The notes under the pieces were generated by a model that was given only the letters and a program-made list of their open reading frames with translations, was not told where the DNA came from and did not search any database. Of a stretch of DNA of 18,454 nucleotides, positions 2,065-15,775 are shown in pieces. The position numbers and the translations under genes are program-made. The DNA lies in NCBI GenBank assembly GCA_937889645.1, contig CALBZE010000083.1, positions 1 to 18,454 on the forward strand, in the 5' to 3' direction. Position 1 is the stretch's first letter. The number at the start of each line of letters is the position of its first letter. This DNA is from an uncultured bacterium. Its GTDB lineage: Bacteria; Gemmatimonadota; Gemmatimonadetes; Longimicrobiales; RSA9.

Positions 2065-3648
2065 ATGTTCATGCCGACATCCGACGCACGATCCGACACT
2101 CTCGAACACAACCCGTCGCCCGGCGAGACGGAATCGAGCGCGGCCGCGGGAACCCAGCCCGCGGCCGCTCGTCATGCCGAGCCGCCCTCGTCGGAGTCGC
2201 CGTCGTCCTCGCCCGAAGTCTCGGCGTCCGGTGGTGCGACGCCGCGGGGGGCGGGACGACGCTTCGACCGCTCGATCGTCGAAGGCCCCATCCTCCCGGC
2301 CGTCTGGAAGCTCGCCTGGCCGACGATGCTGCACAACCTGATCGGCGGACTGCAGGGGATGGTCGACCACGCGATGGTCGGCCATTTCGTGGGGTACACG
2401 GGGAACGCGGCGATCGGGGTGAGCCTTCAGATCTTCCTGGTCGTCGTCGTCTTCATCTCATCGCTGTACACGGGGATGGGCGTGTTGGTCGCCCGGTTCG
2501 CCGGCGCGGGCGACGAGGAGAAGGTGAACCGCACGGTCTACCAGGCGTTCATCACGTCCGCCGCGCTGTCGATCCTGGTCCTCGCGCCGGTCGGCTACTT
2601 CGCGGCGCCGGCGCTGCTCGGGCTGGTCAACGCCGCGCCGAAGGTGCAGGCGGAGGCGCTGCCGTACCTGCGGATCATGTTCCTGTGCAGCTTCGGCACG
2701 ATGTTCTTCTTCATGCTGGGCGGCGCGCTGCGTTCGGCGGGCGATGCCAGGACGCCGCTGCGGTACGGCGTGGTGGTGACGGTCGTGAACATCGCGCTGA
2801 ACGTGATCCTGATCCCGGGGCTGGGGCCGGTGCCGGCGCTGGGGACGGCCGGCGCGGCGATCGGGACGGCGCTGGCGACCGGGGGCGCGAGCCTGTACGC
2901 GCTCTACGCGCTACGCCGCGGGCGCTGGGTCGTCGCCTTCCCGCGCGGGATGAGCCTGAAGCCGGACTGGGAGGTGATCCGCGCGCTGTTCCGGTTCGGT
3001 CTACCGACGGGGATCCAGGGCGTGGCGATGAACGTGGGCGGGGTGCTGCTGCTGCGCTTCATCGGCTCGCTCGAGCAGAGCGCGGAGGCGCAGGCGGCTT
3101 ACGCCGTCGCCTACACGGAGATCTTCTCGCTCGTCAGCATGATGGCGATCGGGATCATGGGCGCGACGGCGGCGGTCGTGGGGCAGAACCTGGGCGCGCG
3201 GCGGGTCGACCGGGCGACGCGGGCGGTCTCGGTCGCGTCGCGGATCGGGCTTACCGGCGCGGGCACGCTCGGGCTGCTCTTCCTCACGATCCCGCACGTG
3301 CTGCTGGGCGCGTTCGGGATGACCGACCCGGGCGTCGCCGAGCTGGGCGTGCAGCTGCTGCGGTTCCTGACCGTCTCGAGCTTCTTCCTGACGCTGGCAC
3401 TCGTGTACACGGGCGGGCTGCAGGGGACGGGCGACACGAGGAGCCCGCTCTACATCTCGCTCATCTCGCAGATCGCCGTGCCGCTCGGGCTGTGCTACCT
3501 GTTCCAGCAGACGCGAGGGTTGGAGCCGGGCGACATCTGGCTCGCGATCATGCTCGGGCACATCACGCGCGGGACGCTGAGCGTGGGGCGGTTCAGGCAG
3601 GGGAAGTGGCGGGAGATCGTGGTGGACATCGGGCCGGCGCGGGCGTGA
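2065..3648 (+). CDS. MATE family efflux transporter (NorM/DinF-like) with an N-terminal low-complexity extension of about 75 aa
   Basis: gagga sits 8 nt upstream of the ATG. WPTMLHNLIGGLQGMVDHAMVGHFVG is a MATE N-terminal signature. About 12 hydrophobic segments. Residues 1-75 are S/P/E/A-rich and non-hydrophobic. Confidence 0.85.
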   Translation: MFMPTSDARSDTLEHNPSPGETESSAAAGTQPAAARHAEPPSSESPSSSPEVSASGGATPRGAGRRFDRSIVEGPILPAVWKLAWPTMLHNLIGGLQGMVDHAMVGHFVGYTGNAAIGVSLQIFLVVVVFISSLYTGMGVLVARFAGAGDEEKVNRTVYQAFITSAALSILVLAPVGYFAAPALLGLVNAAPKVQAEALPYLRIMFLCSFGTMFFFMLGGALRSAGDARTPLRYGVVVTVVNIALNVILIPGLGPVPALGTAGAAIGTALATGGASLYALYALRRGRWVVAFPRGMSLKPDWEVIRALFRFGLPTGIQGVAMNVGGVLLLRFIGSLEQSAEAQAAYAVAYTEIFSLVSMMAIGIMGATAAVVGQNLGARRVDRATRAVSVASRIGLTGAGTLGLLFLTIPHVLLGAFGMTDPGVAELGVQLLRFLTVSSFFLTLALVYTGGLQGTGDTRSPLYISLISQIAVPLGLCYLFQQTRGLEPGDIWLAIMLGHITRGTLSVGRFRQGKWREIVVDIGPARA

Positions 3649-4403
3649 CGGTGGTGGCGCTGGCCGGGTAGCGGCGGGGACCAGCGGCACGCTTCGCGTG
3701 CGGGCGCGGCCGCGCTGCGCGCGGCGGGGGGCGGCACCGCTTCGCGGCGCGGGGGGCAGCCGGCCGCTGGCGCGGCCGGCGGGAGGCGGCCCCTGCGGGG
3801 CGGGTGGCGGCGCCCTCGGCGCCGCGGGGGAGCCGCCTTCGGCGGCGGGTGGAGCCGGGCCTTCGGCCGGCGCGGGAGGGTGGCGGCCTGGCGGCCGCGG
3901 GGCGACGCGTTCACGATCCGGATGAGCAGATCCTCCGGCGCCTCCCAGCCGCCGAGCTGTTCCACGTCGCTGGCGTACCTGCCGTTGCCCGAGGCGTAGT
4001 ACACCTCCTGCATGGTCGCGAGGTTCTCGAGCGTGGAGCGGATCGTGGCCATCGTCTCGGCCGGCAGTGCGCGGGTCGGCTGCTCCTGGCCGGCCCCGTC
4101 GTCCGCGATCACGCGGGTGGGGGCGCGCTCCGCACCTTCCAGGGCGTAGAGCTCGAGGTACTCGACATCCATCTCTTCGCGGCCGGGCCGGCGGACCCAC
4201 AGGTGCCCCTGCGGGCTGACCTTCACGTACCGATAACCGACCTTCGGGTCCGGCGGCGGCAGCCGGTCGATCGCCGCGTGCACGACGCCGCGGCCACGAC
4301 CGAGTTCGCGGCCGTCGACCCAGCTCGGATCGTAGAGCCACTCGTCGAAGATGAAGCCGCGCCGCCGGCGCTCCCCTCTATTGCCGTCGCACGTCCAGCT
4401 CAC
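3495..4403 (-). CDS. Hypothetical protein; boundaries unresolved. Coding-like composition is confined to about 3906-4370, and the in-frame ORF reaches a stop only at 3495, after running through the hairpin array and 150 bp of the MATE 3' end
   Basis: Strong GC3 periodicity across FIFDEWLYDPSWVDG...ATMQEVYYASGNGRYASDVEQLGGWEAPEDLLIRIVNAS. No ATG is present; candidate GTG starts are at 4403 and 4283. The P/R/A-rich tail is encoded by the hairpin array and is probably not genuine. Confidence 0.3.
   Translation of the reverse strand: MSWTCDGNRGERRRRGFIFDEWLYDPSWVDGRELGRGRGVVHAAIDRLPPPDPKVGYRYVKVSPQGHLWVRRPGREEMDVEYLELYALEGAERAPTRVIADDGAGQEQPTRALPAETMATIRSTLENLATMQEVYYASGNGRYASDVEQLGGWEAPEDLLIRIVNASPRGRQAATLPRRPKARLHPPPKAAPPRRRGRRHPPRRGRLPPAAPAAGCPPRREAVPPPAARSAAAPAREACRWSPPLPGQRHHRHARAGPMSTTISRHFPCLNRPTLSVPRVMCPSMIASQMSPGSNPRVCWNR
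3680..3900. repeat. Array of 8-9 tandem GC-rich hairpins, each followed by a G-run (GGGNGG), in a convergent intergenic region
   Basis: Hairpins read directly: gcacgc-ttc-gcgtgc; gcgcggccgcgc (12-nt palindrome); ccgc-ttc-gcgg; gccggccgc-tggc-gcggccggc (9-bp stem); gcccc-tgc-ggggc; ggcgcc-ctc-ggcgcc; gccgcc-ttc-ggcggc; ggcc-ttc-ggcc; cggcc-tggc-ggccg. Each is followed by ggggg, gggtgg or gggagg. Confidence 0.7.
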
Positions 4404-4893
4404 CGCGCAGCAGCGTCGTCGGTCCGAAGGTCGGGCGGCCGAACGGGCCGGCGTCGACGGCGAACCGGCCGTCCAATCGGTACGCGACGGTGCGCTCGGT
4501 GAGGAAACGCACGGCGGCATCGGCCAGGCCGGGGACGTCGGCGAAGCTGATGGTGACGTCGATCGGGACGACGGTGTCCTGCTGCGCGCGGAGCGGGAGC
4601 CCGAGCGGGAGATCGACGGCCGCGGCGCGCGCGCCCTCGAGGAGCAGGTCGCCCTCCAGGGTGGAAAGGGTCAGGCCGAAGGCGTTGGGGTTCTGGACGC
4701 GCGTCCAGATGCGGATCGCGGCGCCGCCGAGCGGCCGGGTCGAGGACGGGCCGAGGAGGCGCAGCTCGGAGCGACGGTCTTCGGCCGCCTCGAAGCGCGG
4801 CGGCTCGACGCGGATCAGTTCGGAGACCGTCGCACAACCGGCCACGAGGAGCGCGGCGGCCAGCCAGAGGTGCGTATTCCGTTTCGGCATCAT
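4378..4893 (-). CDS. Lipoprotein with LEA-2 / WHy-like (late-embryogenesis-abundant 14-type) domain
   Basis: MMPKRNTHLWLAAALLVAGC has a lipobox LVAGC. An NPN-containing beta-rich domain (RVQNPNAFGLTLSTLEGDLLLEG...YRLDGRFAVDAG) resembles bacterial LEA_2 proteins. Confidence 0.55.
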   Translation of the reverse strand: MMPKRNTHLWLAAALLVAGCATVSELIRVEPPRFEAAEDRRSELRLLGPSSTRPLGGAAIRIWTRVQNPNAFGLTLSTLEGDLLLEGARAAAVDLPLGLPLRAQQDTVVPIDVTISFADVPGLADAAVRFLTERTVAYRLDGRFAVDAGPFGRPTFGPTTLLRGELDVRRQ

Positions 4894-5065: not shown

Positions 5066-6022
5066 ATGGCGAATCGGACCGAACTCGCGACTGCCCAACG
5101 TAGGCGCCGACTCCGCCGCGCCCATCGACTCCCGGCCCTGCTGCTCGTTCTCGCCGTCGCGGCGCCGGTCGCGGCGCAGACGGCGGGCGACACGGTGCCC
5201 CGGAAGCCGAAGATCGGCGCGCAGTTCGTGATCCCGGCCGCGAGCATCGTTGCCCCCGGGCTCGGTCAGTACCTGCACGGTGCGTACTGGCCAGGCATGG
5301 GGTACACGGGCACGGCGGTCGGCGGGGCGGCGGTGGCCGCCTGGGCCGACGACGGCACGGGGTGGAGCGGCTTCCCGCGCCATGGGCGCGACCAGCTCGA
5401 GTACGAGGCGACGCACGTCGTCCAGTCGGCCGGGTTCCTCAGCGCGTGGGATGCGTTCCGGCGGGCGGTCCCGTCGCTGCAACGACAGGGGAAATACGAA
5501 TTCCTGACGACGCACGAGACGCTGGGCGACCTGCTCACGGCGCCGTTCGATCCCGAGTTCCTGCGTCGCCCGACGACGTGGGCGCACCTGGCGTACACCG
5601 GCCTCGTCGCCGCAATGGTGGTCAGCACGCGGCAATCGGGCGTCGCGTACGAGCCGTTCCGTGCGCAGGACGCGGCGTTTGCGACGTCGCTCTCGTACAA
5701 CGCCGGCGTGAGCGAGGAAGCGCTCTTCCGCGGGTGGCTGTTCCCGGTCCTGTACCAGAACATGGGCCAGCGGTTCTGGCTCTCGAACGCGGCCCAGGCC
5801 GGGATCTTCGGTGCGCTGCACCTCGAGCAGGCGGGCGCGTTCGCGGCGGCGATCACCGCGTGGGCGCTTTACGAAGGGTGGCTGACGCGCCGCAACGATT
5901 GGAGCATCCGGGAGTCGATCTTCCACCACTTCTGGTACGACGTGGCGGCGGTCGTGGTGCAGATGCTGGTGGAGGAGCGCGGCCGTGGGGTTGGGGTCAC
6001 GGTGCCGGTGGTGAGGTTTTGA
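5066..6022 (+). CDS. CPBP family intramembrane glutamic endopeptidase (CAAX protease / bacteriocin-processing family)
   Basis: Three CPBP motifs in order within hydrophobic segments: SEEALFRGWLF (EExxxR), AGIFGALHL (FxxxH), IFHHFWYDV (HxxxD/N). Signal/TM N-terminus. The TGA stop at 6020-6022 abuts the heptad array. Confidence 0.8.
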   Translation: MANRTELATAQRRRRLRRAHRLPALLLVLAVAAPVAAQTAGDTVPRKPKIGAQFVIPAASIVAPGLGQYLHGAYWPGMGYTGTAVGGAAVAAWADDGTGWSGFPRHGRDQLEYEATHVVQSAGFLSAWDAFRRAVPSLQRQGKYEFLTTHETLGDLLTAPFDPEFLRRPTTWAHLAYTGLVAAMVVSTRQSGVAYEPFRAQDAAFATSLSYNAGVSEEALFRGWLFPVLYQNMGQRFWLSNAAQAGIFGALHLEQAGAFAAAITAWALYEGWLTRRNDWSIRESIFHHFWYDVAAVVVQMLVEERGRGVGVTVPVVRF

Positions 6023-6055
6023 GGGCTCAGGGCTCAGGGCTCGGGGCTCAGGGGG
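6021..6055. repeat. G-rich heptad array (GGGCTCA x4), left arm of repeat copy 2
   Basis: gagggctcagggctcagggctcggggctcagggggg begins inside the stop codon of the CPBP gene. Confidence 0.85.
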
Positions 6056-6091
6056 GTGTCGGAGCGTTTTGGGGGTGCGCGAGACTCGCCG

Positions 6092-6306
6092 GGCGGCCGA
6101 AACCTCTCTTCCGGCGCCTCCACCGGCGCCGGCGTGTGCAAACGCAGCACGGAGCGCCCTCTGCGTACCTGCCCGCAATATTTGCGCATGTAGGGTGGCA
6201 AACATCCCACCCGTCTCCCGCCTGCTGCATTTCCGCATTAGGGAGGGCAAATCGAGCAAGCGTCCATTCACACGCCCACTCTTGGGATGTTTCCACACGA
6301 ACGTCG
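6092..6306 (-). repeat. Conserved core of composite repeat, copy 2 (reverse orientation relative to copy 1)
   Basis: The reverse complement of 6092-6306 aligns with 115-320. For example, ggcggccgaaacctctcttccggcgcctccaccggcgccggcgtgtgcaaac is the reverse complement of gtttgcacacgccggcgccggtggaggcgccggaggagaggcttcggccgcc. Confidence 0.85.
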
Positions 6307-6311
6307 CTGGC

Positions 6312-6458
6312 GCCCCCGGCCACCCCGGCCGCTGCCCCGTGCCCCGTGCCCCGTGCCCCGTGCCCCGTGCCCCGTGCCCCGTGCCCCGTGCCCCGAGCCC
6401 CGAGCCCCGAGCCCTGAGCCCTGAGCCCTGAGCCCCAAGCCCTGAGCCCCAAGCCCAA
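6312..6458. repeat. C-rich heptad array: (CCCCGTG)x8 perfect tandem, then (CCCCGAG)x3, (CCCTGAG)x3 and CCCCAAG/CCCTGAG variants; right arm of repeat copy 2
   Basis: Read directly: ccccgtg ccccgtg ... x8 without interruption, then ccccgag x3 ccctgag x3 ccccaag ccctgag ccccaag cccaag. The - strand carries G4-type G3-4N3-4 repeats. Confidence 0.9.
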
Positions 6459-6497: not shown

Positions 6498-6998
6498 TCA
6501 ACCCAACCCGTCACACTCCTCCAACCTCCCAACCAAGCGTCGTGCGCTTTCCGGTGTGAGGTGCGCGAGGTGCTGGTTGGTGAATGTGGGGTCGTCGGTG
6601 ACCTCACGGAGGAGGGCGATTCCGGGTGGCGCGGGCGGGAGCGGCTCGTCGGGCGCGTCGAGCTCGACCTCCGCGATGGCGAGTCCCTCCAGGGGGCCAC
6701 GGAAGATGTCGATTTCCCACCGATCGATCACGTAGCGGACCTTCTCCAGCCGCCGGTCGCCCGCCAACTCGAAGAGTGCGCGGGCGGTCTCTTCGTCGAC
6801 GCCGATCTCTACCTCGCTCCGCACGCGGCCACGGCCGGCTTTGATCGTGAGCAGGTACTGACCGTCGCGGGCGCGGATGCGCACGGCCGGCTCGCCGCGG
6901 GTGATGTAGCCCTGGCGGATCTCGGCGCGGCGCGACGCCGTCCGCAGCACGTCCGGCTCGACGACGCGGCACAGGAAGCGACGTTCGATCTCGATCAT
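6498..6998 (-). CDS. CYTH-domain protein (triphosphate tunnel metalloenzyme; CyaB / thiamine-triphosphatase-like)
   Basis: N-terminal MIEIERRFL matches the CYTH EIERKFL signature. About 166 aa. Its start overlaps the stop of the upstream ATPase by ATGA at 6995-6998, indicating translational coupling. Confidence 0.7.
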   Translation of the reverse strand: MIEIERRFLCRVVEPDVLRTASRRAEIRQGYITRGEPAVRIRARDGQYLLTIKAGRGRVRSEVEIGVDEETARALFELAGDRRLEKVRYVIDRWEIDIFRGPLEGLAIAEVELDAPDEPLPPAPPGIALLREVTDDPTFTNQHLAHLTPESARRLVGRLEECDGLG

Positions 6999-9900
6999 CC
7001 GGCCTCCGAGGCGAGGTTGGCGGCCGTCGACGCGTCAGGGGAGGAGTGCCCGGACCCGGTCGCGATGGTGCAGGCGGCGACGATGCGGTCGACGATCTCG
7101 ATCCCGATGAGCCCGCGCTCGATGTCGCGTGCGACCGCGCCGATCACGCGGGCGCGGACCTCGTCGGGCGAGAGCCGGTCGCGCGGGTCGAGGTAGCCGT
7201 GGCGCTCGAGGTATTCACGCAGCGCGTCGCAGGCGCTCGTGCGGAAGCGCGGGATCCGCCGCTGCTCGAGCGCGTCGATCAGCCGTGCGGCGTCGCCGCG
7301 GAGTTCCCGGCACAGTTCGTCGACGGCGTCGAGGAAGGCGCCGGTGATCGCGCCGGACTCGGCGAGCACGGCGCGGTCGACGGGTCGGCCGCGGCCGATC
7401 CTGGCGGCGGCGACGGCGGCCGCGAGCGCGCGGGCGGCGGCTCCGGCGCGGGCGTAGGCAGCCGCGTCGTCGCCCAGCAGCGTAAGCCCGCCGTGTTCGA
7501 CGAGGTTACGGAGCGCGCCCCACGTCTCGACGCGGAGCGAGAGGAGCCGATGGAGGCGCTCCGGATCGTCGAGAAGGTGCCAGAGGTGCGCCGTCTCGGG
7601 GTCGGCGTGGACGTCGATCGGCGGGACGCCGAGGACGCGGCCGTACTCGAGGTACGACGCGCCGGCGGGCGCGGGGATCGACGTCGCCGGCGGGTCGACG
7701 ACGGGGAGCGGCGTCGCCTGGCCGTCGCGGGCGATCCGCCGCACGTGGGCGAGGTCGATGAAGCGGGCGGGGACGTCGGGCCGGCTCTGGAGCACGCCGC
7801 GCCACTTTCCCACCTCGTCGGGCTGGGCGGTGAAGTAGAAGACCTGGCGGCCGTCGGCGGCGAGGGCGACGGCGGTCTCCATGATGGCGCGGGCGCGGTC
7901 GTCGTCGCTGTTGCCGAGCGTCTCGTCGAAGAGGAGCGGCAGGCGCGCGCCGGTCTCCTGGCTCTCGACGAAGGCGATGCGGACGGCGAGGAGGAGCTGG
8001 ACGCGCGTGCCGCTGGAGAGTTCGTCGAGCGCGCGGCCGACGCCGGTCGTCGTGTCGTAGGCGCGGAACGCGGGCGGCTCGCCGTCGTCGAAGTCGAGGC
8101 GGTAGCGGCCGTGCGTGATGCGGGCGAACAGCTCGCGGGCGCGGTGGAACACGTCGGGGCGGTGCTGGTCCCGGGTCGCGCGCTGGATGAAGCGGACGAG
8201 CGTGCCGGCGACGACGGCGTCGACATCCCGCTCGCGCGCCTCGCGCAACGCGTCGCGGGCGCGGGCGAGCTCCGCGAGTGCGGCCTCGAGGTCGTGGCCG
8301 CGCTTGGCCTGGTCGATCCGCTCCTCGATCCGGGCGATGCGGTCGCGAAGCTCTTGCGCCTCGTCGGCCTCGCCGCGCGCGGCGGCGAGGGCGTCGTGGA
8401 GCGCGGCGACGTCGTGCGCCTCGAGGCCGGGCTCGTAGCCGGGCTCGCGGGCGAGGCGATCGAGCGTCTCCTGCCGGCGGCGGGTCGCGTGGGCGAGCCG
8501 ATCGGCGGCCTCGCGGTAGGCGTCGAAGCGGTCGCACCAGTCGCGGACGACGGGTTCGTCGTCGGGGCCGAGGCCGAGGCGGTCGAGTAGCGCGCGGCGC
8601 TCGGCTTCGAGCGCGGCGATCGTCGTCTCGGCGTCGGCCAGGCGACGGCGCGCGTCGTTCGCGGCGGCGCTCGCCCGGGAGTGGGCCTCCCGGCGGCGTT
8701 CGAGGTCGGCGACGGCGGCAGAGAAATCCGCGACGGCGGCCGCGGGTTCGGCCCCGGGCATGACCCCGCACGGCACATACGGCGCGATCCGCTCCCACGC
8801 CTCGGCCAGCGCGGCGTCGAACTGCGCCCGCGCGTGGGCGAGCTTCGCCTCGACGCCGGCGACGGCCGTGGCAGCGTCGTGCCAGCGGGCGATCCCCTGG
8901 GCGAGCCAGACCAGTTTGCCGGGGTCGGTCTCGGGGCGGACGCCGAGCCGGGCCGCGATCGCGGCGCGGCGGCGTTCGAGGTCGTCGAGCGCGGGGTCGA
9001 GGTCGGCGCGCCGTCTGGCCAGGTCCGCGCGGCGGCGGGCGCGCTCGGCATCCAGCCGCGCCTCGGCGACTCGCCGTTCGAGGCGGTCGAGCGCGGCGGC
9101 GACGTCGCTCTCGGTCCAGCGGCCGGGCCCTTCGACGCCCCACCGGTCGAGCCGCAACCGTTCGAACTCGGCGCGGTGTACGGCGCGCGCATCGGCGGCC
9201 GCGGGTGTGCGGCGCAGGAAGATGCCGAGGATCACCAGGGCGACGAGCGCGAGCGCGATCCCGATGGCGCGCCCGACCCACGTGCCGGGGAACGCGACTC
9301 CGGCGAGCCACGCACCGGCGAGCGACGTCGCGAAAAGCAGCACCCCGATCACCACGCCGAGCGCGCGCAGACGGCGCTCGCTGCGCCCCTCCCCGGCCGC
9401 ATCGGCGTCGCCGCCGGCGCGGAGCCAGCGACGGAGCAACGCGGCGCCTTCCGCGAGGGCGTCGGCCGCCGCCCCATCGTCCGCACCGACGTCCTCGCCG
9501 AGCCACCGGAGCTCCGCGTCCGCCGCGGCTTTGCGGCCGAGGAGGTCCGCGGCGTCGCGGGCGAAGTCGGCGAGCTGGTCGATGGCGGCGGCGCCCTCCA
9601 CCGCGCCCGTCTCCGTCCACGCGGCGTCGATGTCGCGCGCGACCGCGTCGCGCCTGGCGACCGCGTCGTCGAGCTCGCGCTCGAGGGCCCCGATATCGCG
9701 GCGCAGCTCGTCCAGCTTCGCGGCACGCGCTCGCAGCGCGGTGATCGTCTGGTGCGGCACGCCGTCGTCGGGGAGTCCGGCGTCCCGGCGCTCGGCCTCC
9801 GCGGCCTCGAGGTCGCCGGCGGCGCGGGCGTGCCGTTCGCGCGCGTCGTCGAGCTTTGCGCGAATCGTCTCGAGGCGATCGGCCTCGTCGCCTTTGAGGC

Positions 9901-10603
9901 TTGCCATGGCGGCCGGGAACGCGTCCAGCGCGCGGCGGGCGTCGGCCTCGTCAGTGACGGCGCCGGCGTGCTCGATCGCGAGCTCGAGGAGGCGGACGCG
10001 GTCGGCGGCCCGGGCGGCGGCGGAAGCGCGTTCGCGAAGCGTCGCCAGCTCGCGCTCGTCCTCGCGCAGCTCGGCGTGGCGCGCCTCGGCCTGGCGCACC
10101 TTCTCGCGCGCGGCCTTGAGCGCGGCCAGCTCCTTGGAGCGACGCGATGCGCCGTCCTGCGCGCCGATCGCGTCGGCCGCGCGGGCGAGGTCGTAGCCGC
10201 CGGCGGACTCGCGGAGGATTTCTTCGGCGAGGGCGCGGTCCTCGGCGGCGAGGAGTTCGTGGAGCGAGAGGCGGTAGCGGTCGCGCGTCTCCGCGGGCGG
10301 GAGCGGCGGCGCGGACGCGTCCGCGCCGCCGCGCTGCCACCGCGCGCGCCCGGCCTCCGATTCGACGTACCACTCGTCGCCGGCGACGCGGAACCATCCC
10401 GCCAGCGACGCCCGGTCGGGCGCGGCCGCGCGTGGCCAGAGGAGCGCCTCGATCGCGCGCGCCGTCGTCGTCTTCCCCGACGCGTTCGGCCCGTGGACGA
10501 CGTTCACGCCGGGCGAGAGGTCGTCGAGGCGGTAGCCGCCGTCGTCCACGCCGGGCATGCGGCGGATGGCGACGCGTTCGAAGCGGAGCGCGTCGCGGCT
10601 CAT
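6995..10603 (-). CDS. SbcC/YhaN-like SMC-type AAA ATPase, membrane-anchored by two central TM helices, with a C-terminal extension of about 270 aa
   Basis: Walker A VNVVHGPNASGKTT at aa 33-46. Long Ala/Arg/Glu coiled-coil. Hydrophobic pair LGVVIGVLLFATSLAGAWLAGVAF / AIGIALALVALVILGIFL at aa 414-463 (nt 9215-9364). ABC signature/Walker B LDELSSGTRVQLLLAVRIA...LPLLFDETLGNSDD, then D-loop/H region. An extra tail of about 270 aa covers nt 6998-7810. Confidence 0.85.
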   Translation of the reverse strand: MSRDALRFERVAIRRMPGVDDGGYRLDDLSPGVNVVHGPNASGKTTTARAIEALLWPRAAAPDRASLAGWFRVAGDEWYVESEAGRARWQRGGADASAPPLPPAETRDRYRLSLHELLAAEDRALAEEILRESAGGYDLARAADAIGAQDGASRRSKELAALKAAREKVRQAEARHAELREDERELATLRERASAAARAADRVRLLELAIEHAGAVTDEADARRALDAFPAAMASLKGDEADRLETIRAKLDDARERHARAAGDLEAAEAERRDAGLPDDGVPHQTITALRARAAKLDELRRDIGALERELDDAVARRDAVARDIDAAWTETGAVEGAAAIDQLADFARDAADLLGRKAAADAELRWLGEDVGADDGAAADALAEGAALLRRWLRAGGDADAAGEGRSERRLRALGVVIGVLLFATSLAGAWLAGVAFPGTWVGRAIGIALALVALVILGIFLRRTPAAADARAVHRAEFERLRLDRWGVEGPGRWTESDVAAALDRLERRVAEARLDAERARRRADLARRRADLDPALDDLERRRAAIAARLGVRPETDPGKLVWLAQGIARWHDAATAVAGVEAKLAHARAQFDAALAEAWERIAPYVPCGVMPGAEPAAAVADFSAAVADLERRREAHSRASAAANDARRRLADAETTIAALEAERRALLDRLGLGPDDEPVVRDWCDRFDAYREAADRLAHATRRRQETLDRLAREPGYEPGLEAHDVAALHDALAAARGEADEAQELRDRIARIEERIDQAKRGHDLEAALAELARARDALREARERDVDAVVAGTLVRFIQRATRDQHRPDVFHRARELFARITHGRYRLDFDDGEPPAFRAYDTTTGVGRALDELSSGTRVQLLLAVRIAFVESQETGARLPLLFDETLGNSDDDRARAIMETAVALAADGRQVFYFTAQPDEVGKWRGVLQSRPDVPARFIDLAHVRRIARDGQATPLPVVDPPATSIPAPAGASYLEYGRVLGVPPIDVHADPETAHLWHLLDDPERLHRLLSLRVETWGALRNLVEHGGLTLLGDDAAAYARAGAAARALAAAVAAARIGRGRPVDRAVLAESGAITGAFLDAVDELCRELRGDAARLIDALEQRRIPRFRTSACDALREYLERHGYLDPRDRLSPDEVRARVIGAVARDIERGLIGIEIVDRIVAACTIATGSGHSSPDASTAANLASEAG

Positions 10604-11985
10604 GCGCCCTCCTTCTGCGCGAGCAGCTCGTCGAGTAGGAGCGCGGCCTGGCGCGCAAGCGCTCCAGCGGCGACGGCGCGGGCGTCGACGTCGTCGCCCA
10701 GGCCGAGGTAGGGCTTCGCGGCGTAGACGTCCTGGACCGCGGCGGCCGCGTCGCGGAGGAGCGGCTCCAAATCCTCCGACACCGCGACGCCGGCACCGAT
10801 CGGCGCGCCCGCGTCGGCCGGGGGCGCCGCCTTCCCCCTGCTCTCTCCTGCCGCACCGGCTGCGGTCGCCGCCTCATCCCTGCCCTCCCCGCCCGCCTCC
10901 AGCGCGAGCAGCAACCGCGCGAGCAACCCGACGGGGTCGTTCCCCTGTGCCAGCTCCGCCAGGTCGCGCGCCGGGCGAGTCCGGACCTCTACGCTCTCGA
11001 CGTACCCCGCGACCGGCCCGGAGCCGAGCTCGAGGTCGGTGCGGAGCGCCTCGAGCCGCGCGGCGATCGAGCGGTGCAGCGGCGTCCGGCCCACGACGCG
11101 GAGCCGGCAACTCAGGTGGCGGAGCGCGTCGCCGCCCGAGGCAACGTCCGCGAGGTGCGCACGCAGCGCCGTCGTCACGCGCCGGTCGACCTCCGCCGGG
11201 TCGGCCACGCCGTCGACATCGACCTCGACGGCGTCGTAGCGCACCGAGGAGAGCGGGACCATGCGCGCGCGGAACGAGCGCCCGGGCCCGACCTCCACGA
11301 TCCAGACGCCGTGCGCGCCCGGCTCGCCCGGGTCGAGCGCCTGCGGCGAGCCGGGGTAGAGGACTGGCGCGGCGCCGGGCTCCTCGAACAGCCGCGGCGC
11401 GTGGATGTGGCCGAGGAGCCAGAAGTCGACCGGCGCGGCGCGCAGCTCGGCGAGCGAGACAGGCGCATAGTCGCTCCCGGGCTGGTCGAGGTCGGCGTGG
11501 AGGAGGCCGAGGACGGGCGCGTCGTCGCCCGGCGAGCCGAGCGCGAACGAGCCGAGGGGGCTCTCGCGGACGCGCGCCTCCGGAAACGACCAGCCGACCA
11601 CATGGATTGCCTCGCCCCCGCGGCGTGCAGTCACCCGCTCCCAGCGCCCGCCGCGCCCCAGGAGCCGGAACCGGTCGCCGCCGAGCTCGTCGGCGAGGCG
11701 CGGGAAGACGTCGTGGTCGTGGTTGCCGGCGACGGCGACGGTCAGAATCCCGGCCTCGGCGAGGCGGCGGATCCCGGCCTCGAGCGGGCCGGTCGCCTCG
11801 TAGTACCGGTTCGCCTGGTCGACGACGTCGCCGCTCAGGGCGACGACGTCGACCTTCTCGGCGAGCGCGAGGTCGACGATCCGCGTCCAGCACGCGGCGC
11901 TCGAGACCTCGCGGCCGTCGACGTGCTCCGGCAGTCGCGCCGAGCGGCGGCCGATGTGAACATCACCGCAGCAGAGGATCTTCAC
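10600..11985 (-). CDS. SbcD/Mre11-like calcineurin-family metallophosphoesterase (DNA repair exonuclease subunit, YhaO-like)
   Basis: VKILCCGDVHIG, GDVVD, GNHD and GHIH motifs are the Mre11/SbcD phosphoesterase motifs I-IV. Stop and start overlap (ATGA) with the downstream ATPase at 10600-10603. Start chosen at the GTG at 11985 (VKIL...); the ORF track's alternative ATG at 12102 would add a 39-aa R/A-rich leader. Confidence 0.8.
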   Translation of the reverse strand: MKILCCGDVHIGRRSARLPEHVDGREVSSAACWTRIVDLALAEKVDVVALSGDVVDQANRYYEATGPLEAGIRRLAEAGILTVAVAGNHDHDVFPRLADELGGDRFRLLGRGGRWERVTARRGGEAIHVVGWSFPEARVRESPLGSFALGSPGDDAPVLGLLHADLDQPGSDYAPVSLAELRAAPVDFWLLGHIHAPRLFEEPGAAPVLYPGSPQALDPGEPGAHGVWIVEVGPGRSFRARMVPLSSVRYDAVEVDVDGVADPAEVDRRVTTALRAHLADVASGGDALRHLSCRLRVVGRTPLHRSIAARLEALRTDLELGSGPVAGYVESVEVRTRPARDLAELAQGNDPVGLLARLLLALEAGGEGRDEAATAAGAAGESRGKAAPPADAGAPIGAGVAVSEDLEPLLRDAAAAVQDVYAAKPYLGLGDDVDARAVAAGALARQAALLLDELLAQKEGA

Positions 11986-13675: not shown

Positions 13676-15775
13676 TCACCTCGCGGGCGGCGGGGTGGCA
13701 GCGGGGACCGCGAGCGTGTCGGTCGCGACGCGTGGCCGGGCCCGGCCCCTCGGCCGCGGCCGCGGCGTGCCACACGCGACGTCGCGCACCGTGGTCGCCA
13801 GGAAGTACTCGGTGCGGGCGACGCCGTCGAAGACGCAATCGGGGCGGTAAACGCGCCCGGCATCGTCGACGCGCAGCTCGAGCACCGACGCCGGCATCGC
13901 CCACCCCGCCTCGCCCCGTGGCGCGATGCGTCGCATGATCCGACCCCAGAGCCTAGGCGCGACGCGGTCGCCCGCCGTGCCCCGGATGATCGGCCGCGGC
14001 AGGTCGAACCCGATCCACACGACCGCGACCCGGCTCGGCGTATACCCCGCGAACCAGTAGTCGACCGAGTTGTTGGTCGTGCCGGTCTTCCCGGCCGCGG
14101 GGCCGCGGTACCCCGCGAGCCGCACGGCGGTGCCGGTCCCACGGTCGACCACGTCGCGCAGGATGTCCGTGATCAAGAAGGCGACGCCGGGGTCGAGCAC
14201 GGCCTCGACCTTCGGGTCCTGACGCCAGACCTCGGTGCCGTCCGGGCGCCGGACGACCGACACGATGCGCGGCTCCGGCCGGCTGCCGAGGGTCGCGAAC
14301 GCGGCGTACGCGGCGGCCAGCTCGAGCGGCGTCGCCTCCGCGATCCCGAGCGCGAGCGACGGGACGCGCGGGAACGGGCCGCGCAGCCCCATCCGCCCGG
14401 CGAGCTCCGCGACGCGGTCGAAGCCGACCGCCTCGGCCAGCCGGATCGTCGCCGTGTTGCTCGAGACGACGAGCGCATCGCGCAGCGAGATCGACTCCGC
14501 GTAGCGGCCGTCGTAGTTGCGCGGCGCCCAGACCCGCCCGCCGCCCAGGTCGCGGCGGATCGGCGAGTCGTCCAGCTGGTCCGCGGGCGAGTAGCCGGCC
14601 ATGATCGCGGCGGCGTAGATGAACGGCTTGAACGTGCTCGCCGGCTGGCGCCACGCGCCGACCGCGCGGTTGAAACGCGAATGCGAGAAGTCCCGCCCGC
14701 CGACCATCGCGAGGACGTCGCCCGTCGCCGCGTCCAGCACCAGGACCGCGCCCTGGAGGTACGGCGTGCCGTCCGGGCGGGCGGCCGCGGTGTCGTCGTA
14801 GACGGGGTGCTCCCAGGGGCCGTACTGCCCGGCTTCCATCTCCGCGAGGAGCGCGCGCAGCTCGGCCTCGGCGACCGCCTGGGCCCGCGCGTCCAGCGTC
14901 GTGTGGATCGTGTAGCCGCCGGCGTAGAGCGCGTCGCCGATCTCGCGCTCCATGTAGTTGCGGACCTCCTCGACGAAGTACGGCGCGAGGTCGCCGGCGT
15001 CGGCCGTCGCCTCCGCGGTCACGAGCGGCGCGTCGTCCGCTTCGTTCGCTTCGTCCTCCGTGATCAACCCCTGCCGCCACATCTGGTGCAGCACGACCCA
15101 ACGCCGGCGATACGCGAGGACCGGGTTGCGGTGCGGGTCGAGCTGGTTCGGCGCGGTGACCATCCCGGCGAGGAGCGCGGCCTCGGCCAGGGTGAGCGTC
15201 GACGCCGGCTTGCGAAAGTATTCGCGCGCAGCCGCCTCGATCCCCCACGCGCCGCGGCCGAAATAAATATGGTTCAGGTACAGCTCGAGGATCTGGCGCT
15301 TGGTGTAACGCTCCTCGATCGCCGTCGCGACGCGCATTTCCGCGAGCTTGCGGCCGAGCGTGCGTTCGGTGTACGGAAGCCGGTCGGGGAACGCGTTGCG
15401 GGCGAGCTGCATGGTGATCGTGCTGAACCCTTGCCGGACGCCGAGCGAGCGGACGTTGGCGAGGAGCGCGCCGAAGGCGCGTCGCCAGTCGATCCCGCTG
15501 TGCTGCCAGAAGCGCTGGTCCTCGATCGCGACGAACGCCGCGGGTACGTGGGGCGGGAGGGAGTCGAGGGGGATGATCTCGCGCTGGACGACGTAGAGCC
15601 GGGCGAGTTCTACACCGTTGCGGTCGAGGACGACGGCCGCGCGGTCCGGCACGTACCCGTCCAGCCGTTCGATCTCCGGGCACCCCCCCACGCCGCACCG
15701 CTGCCAGAGCAACCAGGCCAGGCCGGCGAGGGAGAGCACTCCCAGGAATCCAATGATGCGTGGCCGGGTGGGCAA
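13676..15775 (-). CDS. Class A penicillin-binding protein (PBP1A; GT51 transglycosylase plus transpeptidase)
   Basis: N-terminal TM anchor. GT51 motifs EDQRFWQHSGID and TITMQLARNAF. Transpeptidase motifs STFKP (SxxK), SSN and KTGT. Confidence 0.9.
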   Translation of the reverse strand: MPTRPRIIGFLGVLSLAGLAWLLWQRCGVGGCPEIERLDGYVPDRAAVVLDRNGVELARLYVVQREIIPLDSLPPHVPAAFVAIEDQRFWQHSGIDWRRAFGALLANVRSLGVRQGFSTITMQLARNAFPDRLPYTERTLGRKLAEMRVATAIEERYTKRQILELYLNHIYFGRGAWGIEAAAREYFRKPASTLTLAEAALLAGMVTAPNQLDPHRNPVLAYRRRWVVLHQMWRQGLITEDEANEADDAPLVTAEATADAGDLAPYFVEEVRNYMEREIGDALYAGGYTIHTTLDARAQAVAEAELRALLAEMEAGQYGPWEHPVYDDTAAARPDGTPYLQGAVLVLDAATGDVLAMVGGRDFSHSRFNRAVGAWRQPASTFKPFIYAAAIMAGYSPADQLDDSPIRRDLGGGRVWAPRNYDGRYAESISLRDALVVSSNTATIRLAEAVGFDRVAELAGRMGLRGPFPRVPSLALGIAEATPLELAAAYAAFATLGSRPEPRIVSVVRRPDGTEVWRQDPKVEAVLDPGVAFLITDILRDVVDRGTGTAVRLAGYRGPAAGKTGTTNNSVDYWFAGYTPSRVAVVWIGFDLPRPIIRGTAGDRVAPRLWGRIMRRIAPRGEAGWAMPASVLELRVDDAGRVYRPDCVFDGVARTEYFLATTVRDVACGTPRPRPRGRARPRVATDTLAVPAATPPPAR

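Follow-up and report, generated by a model that had tools for sequence, protein, structure and literature searches.

The Rad50-like ATPase SbcE (YhaN) of Bacillus subtilis binds SbcF (YhaO) and acts in double-strand break (DSB) repair and, at the competence pole, in transformation; its 'unique central domain' has a hydrophobic first half and a conserved proline, proves insoluble on expression and is without a CxxC motif (PMC2811018). A survey from 2019 still listed the role of SbcEF as poorly characterized (PMC6452273), and a search of the literature on membrane-anchored Rad50 proteins or on the mechanism of SbcEF found nothing beyond that survey and the 2009 study of SbcE (PMC2811018). The present study concerns a relative of this pair in an uncultured bacterium of the Longimicrobiales (Gemmatimonadota), encoded within a stretch of 18,454 nucleotides (contig CALBZE010000083.1, assembly GCA_937889645.1; hereafter, the window). 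Here, genes for a metallophosphoesterase, a Rad50/SbcC-like ATPase and a CYTH-domain protein follow one another on the minus strand with four-nucleotide overlaps at both junctions, an arrangement that an initial annotation, made from the DNA letters alone, had taken for a three-part system.

Based on comparisons across the wider family, the functional unit is probably a two-gene complex of the Mre11/Rad50 type and of the SbcF/SbcE kind, belonging to a long-tailed clade in which the CYTH gene is the add-on of one subclade. Because the pair and the C-terminal tail of its ATPase are conserved widely and the CYTH gene is restricted to that subclade, the locus is better described as a distinct long-tailed variant of SbcEF than as a three-component CYTH system.

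An obligatory pair of Mre11-like and Rad50-like genes

The product of the first gene scores 45 bits against the Metallophos model of Pfam (cut-off 21.5), has all five nuclease motifs intact (GDVH at residue 7, GDVVD at 52, GNHD at 87, LLHAD at 161 and GHIH at 192) and finds its top sequence matches in the PDB in Mre11 and SbcD. The curated SbcD/Mre11 cut-offs are missed, as the protein reaches 43.1 bits against the 77.65 set for the NCBIfam model sbcd (TIGR00619) and 20-30 bits against cut-offs of 450-750 for other such models (NF041754, NF008206). The ATPase matches Pfam AAA_23 at 27.6 bits (cut-off 27), in the N-terminal P-loop region only (residues 7-70), and over the same residues it scores 21.2 bits against AAA_27 (PF13514), for which the cut-off is 22; precomputed PF13514 assignments are carried by its close homologues P0001-P0003 and by many others. 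Full-length homologues, of 1130-1280 aa, number about 100, the nearest named ones being from metagenome-assembled genomes (MAGs) of Longimicrobiales/Gemmatimonadota, and alignments of 38 and 70 members served to assess motif conservation. Within the family, G38, P39, N40, G43 and K44 of the Walker A motif are invariant, with the form GPN(A/G)SGK(T/S) invariant or nearly so, and the same degree of conservation is seen among the 70 aligned members for the signature LS(S)G(T)R, the Walker B motif P-L-x-x-DE and D900 of the D-loop.

The exception to this canonical set is the H-loop, where the family has glutamine rather than histidine. The motif reads FTAQ (residues 924-927, window positions 7823-7834) in 66 of the 70 members, an alanine preceding the glutamine in 66 of 70, whereas sequences of the YhaN type read FTCH or FTHH at this place. 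The substitution suggests a slower, switch-like turnover of ATP.

Structural comparisons place the ATPase with the Rad50/SMC (structural maintenance of chromosomes) proteins. The family profile matches the N-lobe of Rad50 in the PDB (E = 3e-9), its best sequence matches there being the N- and C-lobes of Rad50, and it also matches, weakly, the coiled coils of EnvC. A near-full-length AlphaFold2 (AF2) model with a predicted local distance difference test (pLDDT) score of 81.7 has a split head, composed of a β-rich N-lobe (residues 1-111) and a C-lobe (~832-952), helical arms at ~154-393 and ~496-811, two hairpin helices and a separate helical tail; its top Foldseek matches are SMC5/6, condensin, Mre11-Rad50, MukB and JetC. 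The kinship with YhaO/YhaN (SbcF/SbcE) that the initial annotation had proposed is upheld by the PF13514 assignments, by the name 'uncharacterized protein YhaN' that JGI gives to many of the ATPase homologues, and by an hhalign comparison in which positions 754-911 of the family profile align with residues 893-1052 of the 1075-residue YhaN-like protein P0104 (E = 5.6e-24). At full length, similarity to proteins of the YhaN type is confined to the head (E of ~1e-8 to 1e-10, with 13-15% coverage).

The phosphoesterase and the ATPase form an obligatory gene pair. Over 59 distinct lineages, 100% of the loci in which the contig covers this region have the phosphoesterase gene immediately upstream of that for the ATPase. 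The lineages derive from 66 metagenomic loci found with a probe made from an eight-sequence alignment of the tail, together with loci from protein look-ups; a 26-sequence version of that alignment was too diverse for pattern scans, and a scan based on the whole ATPase was dominated by matches to the general P-loop pattern and gave one locus. The 4-bp overlap between the two genes recurs, in called gene coordinates, at six diverse loci (L001, L002, L004, L005, L007 and L011). In one natural fusion of 1654 aa (P0268), the Metallophos domain occupies residues 3-220, the P-loop 494-534 and the tail 1397-1649; a Rosetta-stone fusion and a frameshift within the 4-bp overlap are the two explanations for this protein.

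A central hydrophobic hairpin and the lack of a zinc hook

Between its two coiled-coil arms, the ATPase of the window has a double hydrophobic segment, ALGVVIGVLLFATSLAGAWLAGVAF-PGT-WVGRAIGIALALVALVILGIFL, with arginine-rich flanks on both sides, which the AF2 model folds into helices at 406-435 and 440-461 (model numbering). By hydropathy, such a double segment of ~45-50 residues, at positions ~400-470, is present in 38 of 38 aligned family members, and it is followed by P493 in 69 and W496 in 70 of 70 members. There is no cysteine among the apex residues 396-505 of the window ATPase, and hence no CxxC zinc hook. Among proteins of the YhaN type, P0102 and P0103 also have hairpins, and P0104-P0106 lack the segment at the same hydropathy threshold. 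The two central transmembrane helices noted initially thus correspond to a real hydrophobic hairpin, but not to a peculiarity of this locus; given its presence in all 38 members and the hydrophobic central domain of SbcE (PMC2811018), the hairpin is a family trait. As judged from the positive-inside rule applied to its flanks, it is predicted to enter the cytoplasmic membrane and turn back, so that its two ends are on the inner side.

A family-defining helical tail

The extra C-terminal region of some 270 aa that had been noticed in the window, as a region with no obvious motif, is real, and it is all-helical. After a proline-rich linker of ~40 residues comes a helical domain of ~200 residues (~984-1180), for which an AF2 model built from a 26-sequence alignment is all-helical with a pLDDT of 89.3. 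The tail has no match in Pfam at E ≤ 10, nothing significant by sequence in the PDB (best E, 0.18) and no Foldseek match at E < 1. An exhaustive profile search of 1.84 billion representative sequences nevertheless returned 1,989 clusters, defined at 50% identity, with E ≤ 1e-3, of which 1,448 had E ≤ 1e-30. In the best 150 matches, the tail is always C-terminal and the proteins have ~1150-1200 aa; shorter proteins that also end in the tail would most simply be fragments from contig ends. The YhaN-like comparator stops ~20 residues past the equivalent of residue 941, so that the tail, with ~260 residues beyond the aligned end, is an addition. Along with the glutamine in the H-loop, it is one of two features that are new relative to YhaN, and it may be a regulatory module or one that binds a partner or DNA.

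Comparison with SbcEF and SbcCD

With SbcE/SbcF, the pair shares an SbcD-like phosphoesterase gene immediately upstream of a gene for an SMC/Rad50-like ATPase with long coiled coils, the lack of a CxxC hook, a central domain that is hydrophobic and has a conserved proline after it, and a C-terminal head lobe homologous to that of a YhaN-like protein. It differs in an ATPase that is ~130-240 aa longer owing to the helical tail, in having glutamine where the H-loop of the YhaN type has histidine, and in its taxa, which are Gemmatimonadota, Chloroflexota, Acidobacteriota and haloarchaea as opposed to Firmicutes; moreover, the third gene is a CYTH gene here, whereas that of yhaONM encodes the OB+HD protein YhaM. 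With SbcCD and Mre11-Rad50, the pair has in common the two-gene nuclease-ATPase operon, phosphoesterase motifs I-V, Walker A and B, signature and D-loop motifs, and the antiparallel coiled coil. Those systems have a zinc hook where a membrane hairpin is predicted as the apex here, and the present proteins are set apart further by the extra tail, the absence of the H-loop histidine and scores that fall far below the NCBIfam equivalog cut-offs. The nuclease gene comes first in this operon. It does so likewise in the sbcD-sbcC order of Escherichia coli, and archaeal mre11-rad50 operons vary in this respect.

The CYTH gene: component or passenger

The protein encoded by the third gene scores 25.6 bits against the CYTH model of Pfam (cut-off 23.2) and, over residues 1-146, aligns end to end with NeuTTM (NE1496) of Nitrosomonas europaea (PDB 2FBL/3TYP; E = 2.5e-13), so that its original assignment to the CYTH domain stands. 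NeuTTM is a specific inorganic triphosphatase, i.e. a hydrolase of inorganic triphosphate (PPPi), which has been discussed as a metabolite-proofreading enzyme and for which Tyr-28 and Lys-52 are proposed to form a catalytic dyad (PMC3440374). Both proteins are single-domain CYTH proteins of ~155-166 aa, and the dyad residues align with Y31 (in RQGY) and K54 (in LTIKAG) of the window protein. They differ in the ExExK motif, which reads EIERK in NeuTTM and EIERR (E3-I-E5-R-R7) here, with arginine in place of lysine, and in that the gene of the window is coupled to that of a Rad50-like ATPase. By its resemblance to NeuTTM, the CYTH gene product would be an inorganic triphosphatase of that type.

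The distribution of the gene was assessed in two ways, by a search of the six-frame open reading frames (ORFs) of all loci with a profile built from 36 CYTH sequences (a profile from jackhmmer only was too narrow) and by an unbiased census in which 83 probable downstream genes of 52 lineages were compared with Pfam. A CYTH gene of the NeuTTM type lies directly downstream of the ATPase gene in only four places, namely the window, the L007 group, L011 and L021, and the census agreed, giving the same three loci and no others. The association thus occurs in 4 of the 52 lineages with downstream sequence, all four of them within one subclade of the tail-domain tree; L001, L014 and L015, from the same subclade, have neither a CYTH gene nor a remnant detectable by tblastn. 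Three orthologues that are 60-62% identical stand alone in surroundings of other kinds, without a phosphoesterase-ATPase pair in the vicinity; P0119 and P0120 are flanked by bPH_2 genes and ClpP, and P0117 by aminotransferase and amidase genes. Since EIERR is also present in the stand-alone orthologues P0117, P0119 and P0128, it is not an operon-specific adaptation. When the operons of relatives are compared, then, the CYTH gene is absent from most lineages and kept in four of a single subclade; at 4 in 52 lineages, and with three members of the one subclade concerned being without the gene, phosphoesterase, ATPase and CYTH protein are not conserved as a triad, and the absence from these relatives goes part of the way to refuting the initial proposal.

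An alternative would be that, in this subclade, the CYTH protein truly belongs to the machine as its third subunit or as an accessory enzyme, e.g. one that hydrolyses PPPi, nucleoside triphosphates or 5'-triphosphorylated nucleic acid in connection with end processing, or one that docks on the tail. Such a role would accord with the junctions, which are an ATGA overlap in the window, a GTGA overlap in L011, a 33-nt spacer with GGAGG in L007 and a 27-nt spacer in L021, and with a gene order kept over four lineages while ATPase identity falls to ~51-57%; the lysine-to-arginine change in the ExExK motif of the clade and the presence of a different type of CYTH gene 0.7 kb from the pair in Sphaerobacter may be cited as well. 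It is unlikely, however, as the four cases in a single subclade amount to one evolutionary event, neither the gene nor a remnant is present in three members of that subclade, the 48 other lineages have none, the altered motif is common to stand-alone orthologues, and the Sphaerobacter case is unique to its lineage. In addition, no CYTH fusion was seen in the best 150 tail matches, of which the four unusually long ones were scanned with Pfam, and, by a rough estimate from typical CYTH copy numbers, some 0.4 chance co-occurrences would be expected over ~55 lineages. The simplest reading is that the CYTH gene is an operon passenger, i.e. that a housekeeping-type gene was captured once as the last gene of the operon, in a single Longimicrobiales-like sublineage, and that some descendants have since kept it and others have lost it. 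The tight translational coupling in the window would then reflect lineage-specific capture into an operon and not a three-component system.

The CYTH gene near the pair in a Sphaerobacter sp. MAG (L005, positions 2355-2867) is CyaB-like and of a different subtype; it lies 0.7 kb upstream of the pair and is separated from it by a small gene on the opposite strand. As an independent second association it was rejected, being unique to one lineage and compatible with chance.

Genomic neighbours: DNA repair, defence or the envelope

The family, as named by the sources of its sequences, includes Longimicrobiales/Gemmatimonadota, Sphaerobacter/Thermomicrobiales, Thermoanaerobaculia, Wenzhouxiangella and the haloarchaeon Haladaptatus, and it extends over Gemmatimonadota/Longimicrobiales, Chloroflexota, Acidobacteriota and the megaplasmids of haloarchaea. 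The genes around the module differ in nearly every lineage, and no neighbouring gene recurs in more than 4 of the 59. Those neighbours that do recur, sporadically, are repair genes. UvrD/AddA-like genes occur in four lineages, and the downstream genes include two for LigD, two for RecQ, two of the AddB type/PDDEXK and one for uracil-DNA glycosylase; at L002 (10557-16962), AddB/AddA genes stand directly downstream of the pair. The recurrence of repair genes, along with the lack of any defence signal, favours a role in DNA repair or DNA processing over one in defence. More generally, genes for AddB-like (PDDEXK_1) and AddA/UvrD-like helicase-nucleases are found directly beside the pair in several lineages, and genes for LigD, RecQ and uracil-DNA glycosylase in others (L002, with L026, L037 and L048).

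The initial annotation had offered two functions, envelope-proximal DNA processing or a defence-type module. As a defence system against phages or plasmids, the pair, with or without the CYTH protein, would degrade invading DNA at the membrane, and its tethering there would put it at the site where foreign DNA enters. Pairs of an SMC/Rad50-like ATPase and a nuclease are common in defence systems, the neighbourhood differs in almost every lineage, the module is present on ten haloarchaeal megaplasmids, and PADLOC (2.0) gives weak matches to LmuB, mad3, AriA and PtuA. Those matches, however, span only a P-loop region of ~45 residues, and neither the nuclease nor the CYTH protein has one; to LmuB of Lamassu, which likewise joins a Rad50/SMC-like ATPase to a nuclease effector, the match is limited to residues 9-55 (41 bits), and the present locus differs in having the hairpin and the tail, no LmuA/LmuC-type partner and no defence-island context. 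Neither the 50,697 phage records searched nor bacterial plasmids gave a match. The operon is set instead in a housekeeping block, with genes for a rhomboid protein, MatE, LEA_2 and a CPBP protease on one flank and for a Mur-ligase-family protein, a class A penicillin-binding protein (PBP) and an SPFH protein on the other, and this block is wholly syntenic in the metagenomic relative L007, whose ATPase is 71% identical. With recurrent neighbours that are repair genes and not defence genes, a defence function is quite improbable. The defence half of the early proposal therefore found no backing, having P-loop-level PADLOC matches, no phage matches and a housekeeping, syntenic context against it, while envelope-proximal DNA processing fits the published data on SbcE.

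The matches on plasmids are confined to the ten haloarchaeal megaplasmids, where the two genes are annotated as 'SMC family ATPase' and 'DNA repair exonuclease'. On two of these, a Haloarcula plasmid (L086; CP010531, 1-9477) and a Natrinema plasmid (L087; CP100447, 1-9477), two further genes precede the pair with identical spacing, one for a protein of >1200 aa (annotated 'ATP-binding protein' in Haloarcula and 'hypothetical protein' in Natrinema) and the other for a hypothetical protein of 562 aa. In archaea, the four genes may together make up a larger mobile module.

A function apart from DNA might also be considered, in which the pair would serve the remodelling of the membrane or cell wall, with the phosphoesterase acting on a lipid or nucleotide and the ATPase as a membrane-anchored mechanical element. 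The pair adjoins the class A PBP and Mur ligase genes both in the window and in L007, the ATPase has its membrane hairpin, the nuclease falls short of the cut-offs for SbcD/Mre11, and there are the weak EnvC coiled-coil matches of the family profile. But only the closest relatives share the synteny with the PBP and Mur ligase genes, the upstream region being different in L001 and L011; Mre11 and Rad50 lead the matches in structure and sequence, the genes that recur beside the pair are for repair, and SbcE, the characterized relative, acts in DSB repair (PMC2811018). An envelope role of this kind is thus very improbable, the more so as compared with defence.

A proposed model for the long-tailed complex

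For the two-gene complex that is preferred here, the following arrangement can be proposed. By analogy with Rad50/SbcCD and SbcE, the ATPase would dimerize via its ATP-binding cassette (ABC) heads. It would fold into long antiparallel coiled coils, the apex of which would be the two-helix hairpin, placed in the cytoplasmic membrane in lieu of a zinc hook and serving both as apex and as dimerization element, with the head and both coiled-coil arms staying in the cytoplasm. The head would bind the Mre11-like phosphoesterase, and the complex, as its relatives suggest, may hold and process DNA ends near the membrane, e.g. at breaks or on incoming DNA. The CYTH protein would be co-expressed in its sublineage and not be required by the machine.

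Several points weigh against this interpretation. Given that AAA_27 is missed by 0.8 bit and that the sbcd score is below its cut-off, the pair is a distant relative of the characterized proteins, and the insertion of the hairpin in the membrane is predicted from hydropathy only. With the H-loop substitution, the ATPase cycle could differ substantially from that of Rad50. Finally, the ATPases of the four lineages with a CYTH gene are down to ~51-74% identity, and in each of them the gene has stayed in one place and one direction behind the ATPase gene, overlapping it by 4 bp or lying ≤33 nt from it; pure chance adjacency would predict less persistence.

The operon and its surroundings in the window

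As the window has a GC content of ~75%, at which plain ORF lists are noisy, gene frames were taken from a plot of GC content at third codon positions (GC3), and all three consecutive minus-strand genes are supported by it as coding frames. The coordinates of the genes and their ATGA junctions, as first annotated, were confirmed in the sequence and are given, with the features discussed above, in Table 1.

Table 1. Genes, junctions and ATPase regions of the operon, in positions of the window
Feature	Position	Strand	Details
Mre11/SbcD-type (SbcF/YhaO-like) metallophosphoesterase	10600..11985	-	461 aa, GTG start
Phosphoesterase/ATPase ATGA stop/start overlap	10600..10603	-	Read in the sequence
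Rad50/SbcC-like ATPase of the SbcE/YhaN type	6995..10603	-	1202 aa
N-terminal head lobe of the ATPase	10154..10603	-	Walker A GPNASGKT at residues 38-45
Central hydrophobic helical hairpin (predicted membrane segment)	9200..9373	-	Residues ~411-468; two ~22-25-residue helices joined by PGT
C-terminal head lobe of the ATPase	7802..8146	-	LSSGT at 862-866, Walker B LPLLFDE at 888-894, D-loop, Q927
Family-defining C-terminal tail	6998..7801	-	~Residues 935-1202, ~265 aa
ATPase/CYTH ATGA stop/start overlap	6995..6998	-	Read in the sequence
CYTH/triphosphate tunnel metalloenzyme (TTM) protein, NeuTTM-type	6498..6998	-	166 aa

Just upstream of the nuclease gene are the class A PBP gene (open frame 13676-15775, minus strand) and, following it closely, a gene for a three-domain protein of the Mur-ligase family (12157 to ~13680, minus strand); the two are 3 nt apart in the syntenic L007 locus, and the gap to the nuclease gene is ~170 nt in the window and 92 nt in L007. 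This arrangement beside the nuclease gene is found in the closest relatives only. On the other side of the operon, an ORF at 3495-4520 (minus strand) has a good GC3 signal over ~3600-4320 and is without a Pfam match; at the 3' end it would run ~150 nt into the MatE gene (2065-3648), which is convergent with it, and its equivalent in L007 is a 432-aa gene that likewise has no Pfam match.

The CPBP-protease and CYTH genes converge on a region in which a lower-GC, non-coding stretch of ~280 bp (6054-6333) has an array of a 7-nt unit on either side (6022-6053 and 6334-6456), the two arrays being inverted relative to each other. The units are AGGGCTC (4.6 copies) in one array and GCCCCGT, GCCCCGA or GCCCTGA (17.6 copies) in the other, and 32-nt arms are 97% complementary. 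As the syntenic relative L007 has just 53 nt at that place, the region looks like an insertion; it has no Rfam match, and the array motif occurs in none of the 87 fetched loci. Consensus scans of the window found no promoter-like site, as is to be expected at 75% GC, and the sole terminator-like match, which lies inside the ATPase gene, is no more than shuffled sequences predict at that composition.

Implications for Rad50-type machines

SbcEF/YhaON is the least understood of the Rad50-like systems in bacteria, its 'unique central domain' never having been explained mechanistically. The proteins described here make up a large sister family with a hairpin of the membrane type, an obligatory Mre11-like partner and a confidently folded tail that has no counterpart in Pfam or the PDB. 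A bolder and decidedly speculative view, which is held with little confidence, is that the long-tailed family constitutes a mechanistically distinct, membrane-embedded Rad50-type machine, in which tail and H-loop glutamine would gate the nuclease toward membrane-proximal (incoming or envelope-associated) DNA, and that the CYTH protein of the subclade would be an accessory docking on the tail and linking triphosphate or polyphosphate chemistry to the processing of DNA ends. The record of the CYTH gene across the lineages is at the same time a caution against reading it as part of a new three-component system. With ~2,000 clusters over several bacterial phyla and on haloarchaeal megaplasmids, the family provides broad material for comparison on the question of why the membrane serves as an anchor for some Rad50-type machines.

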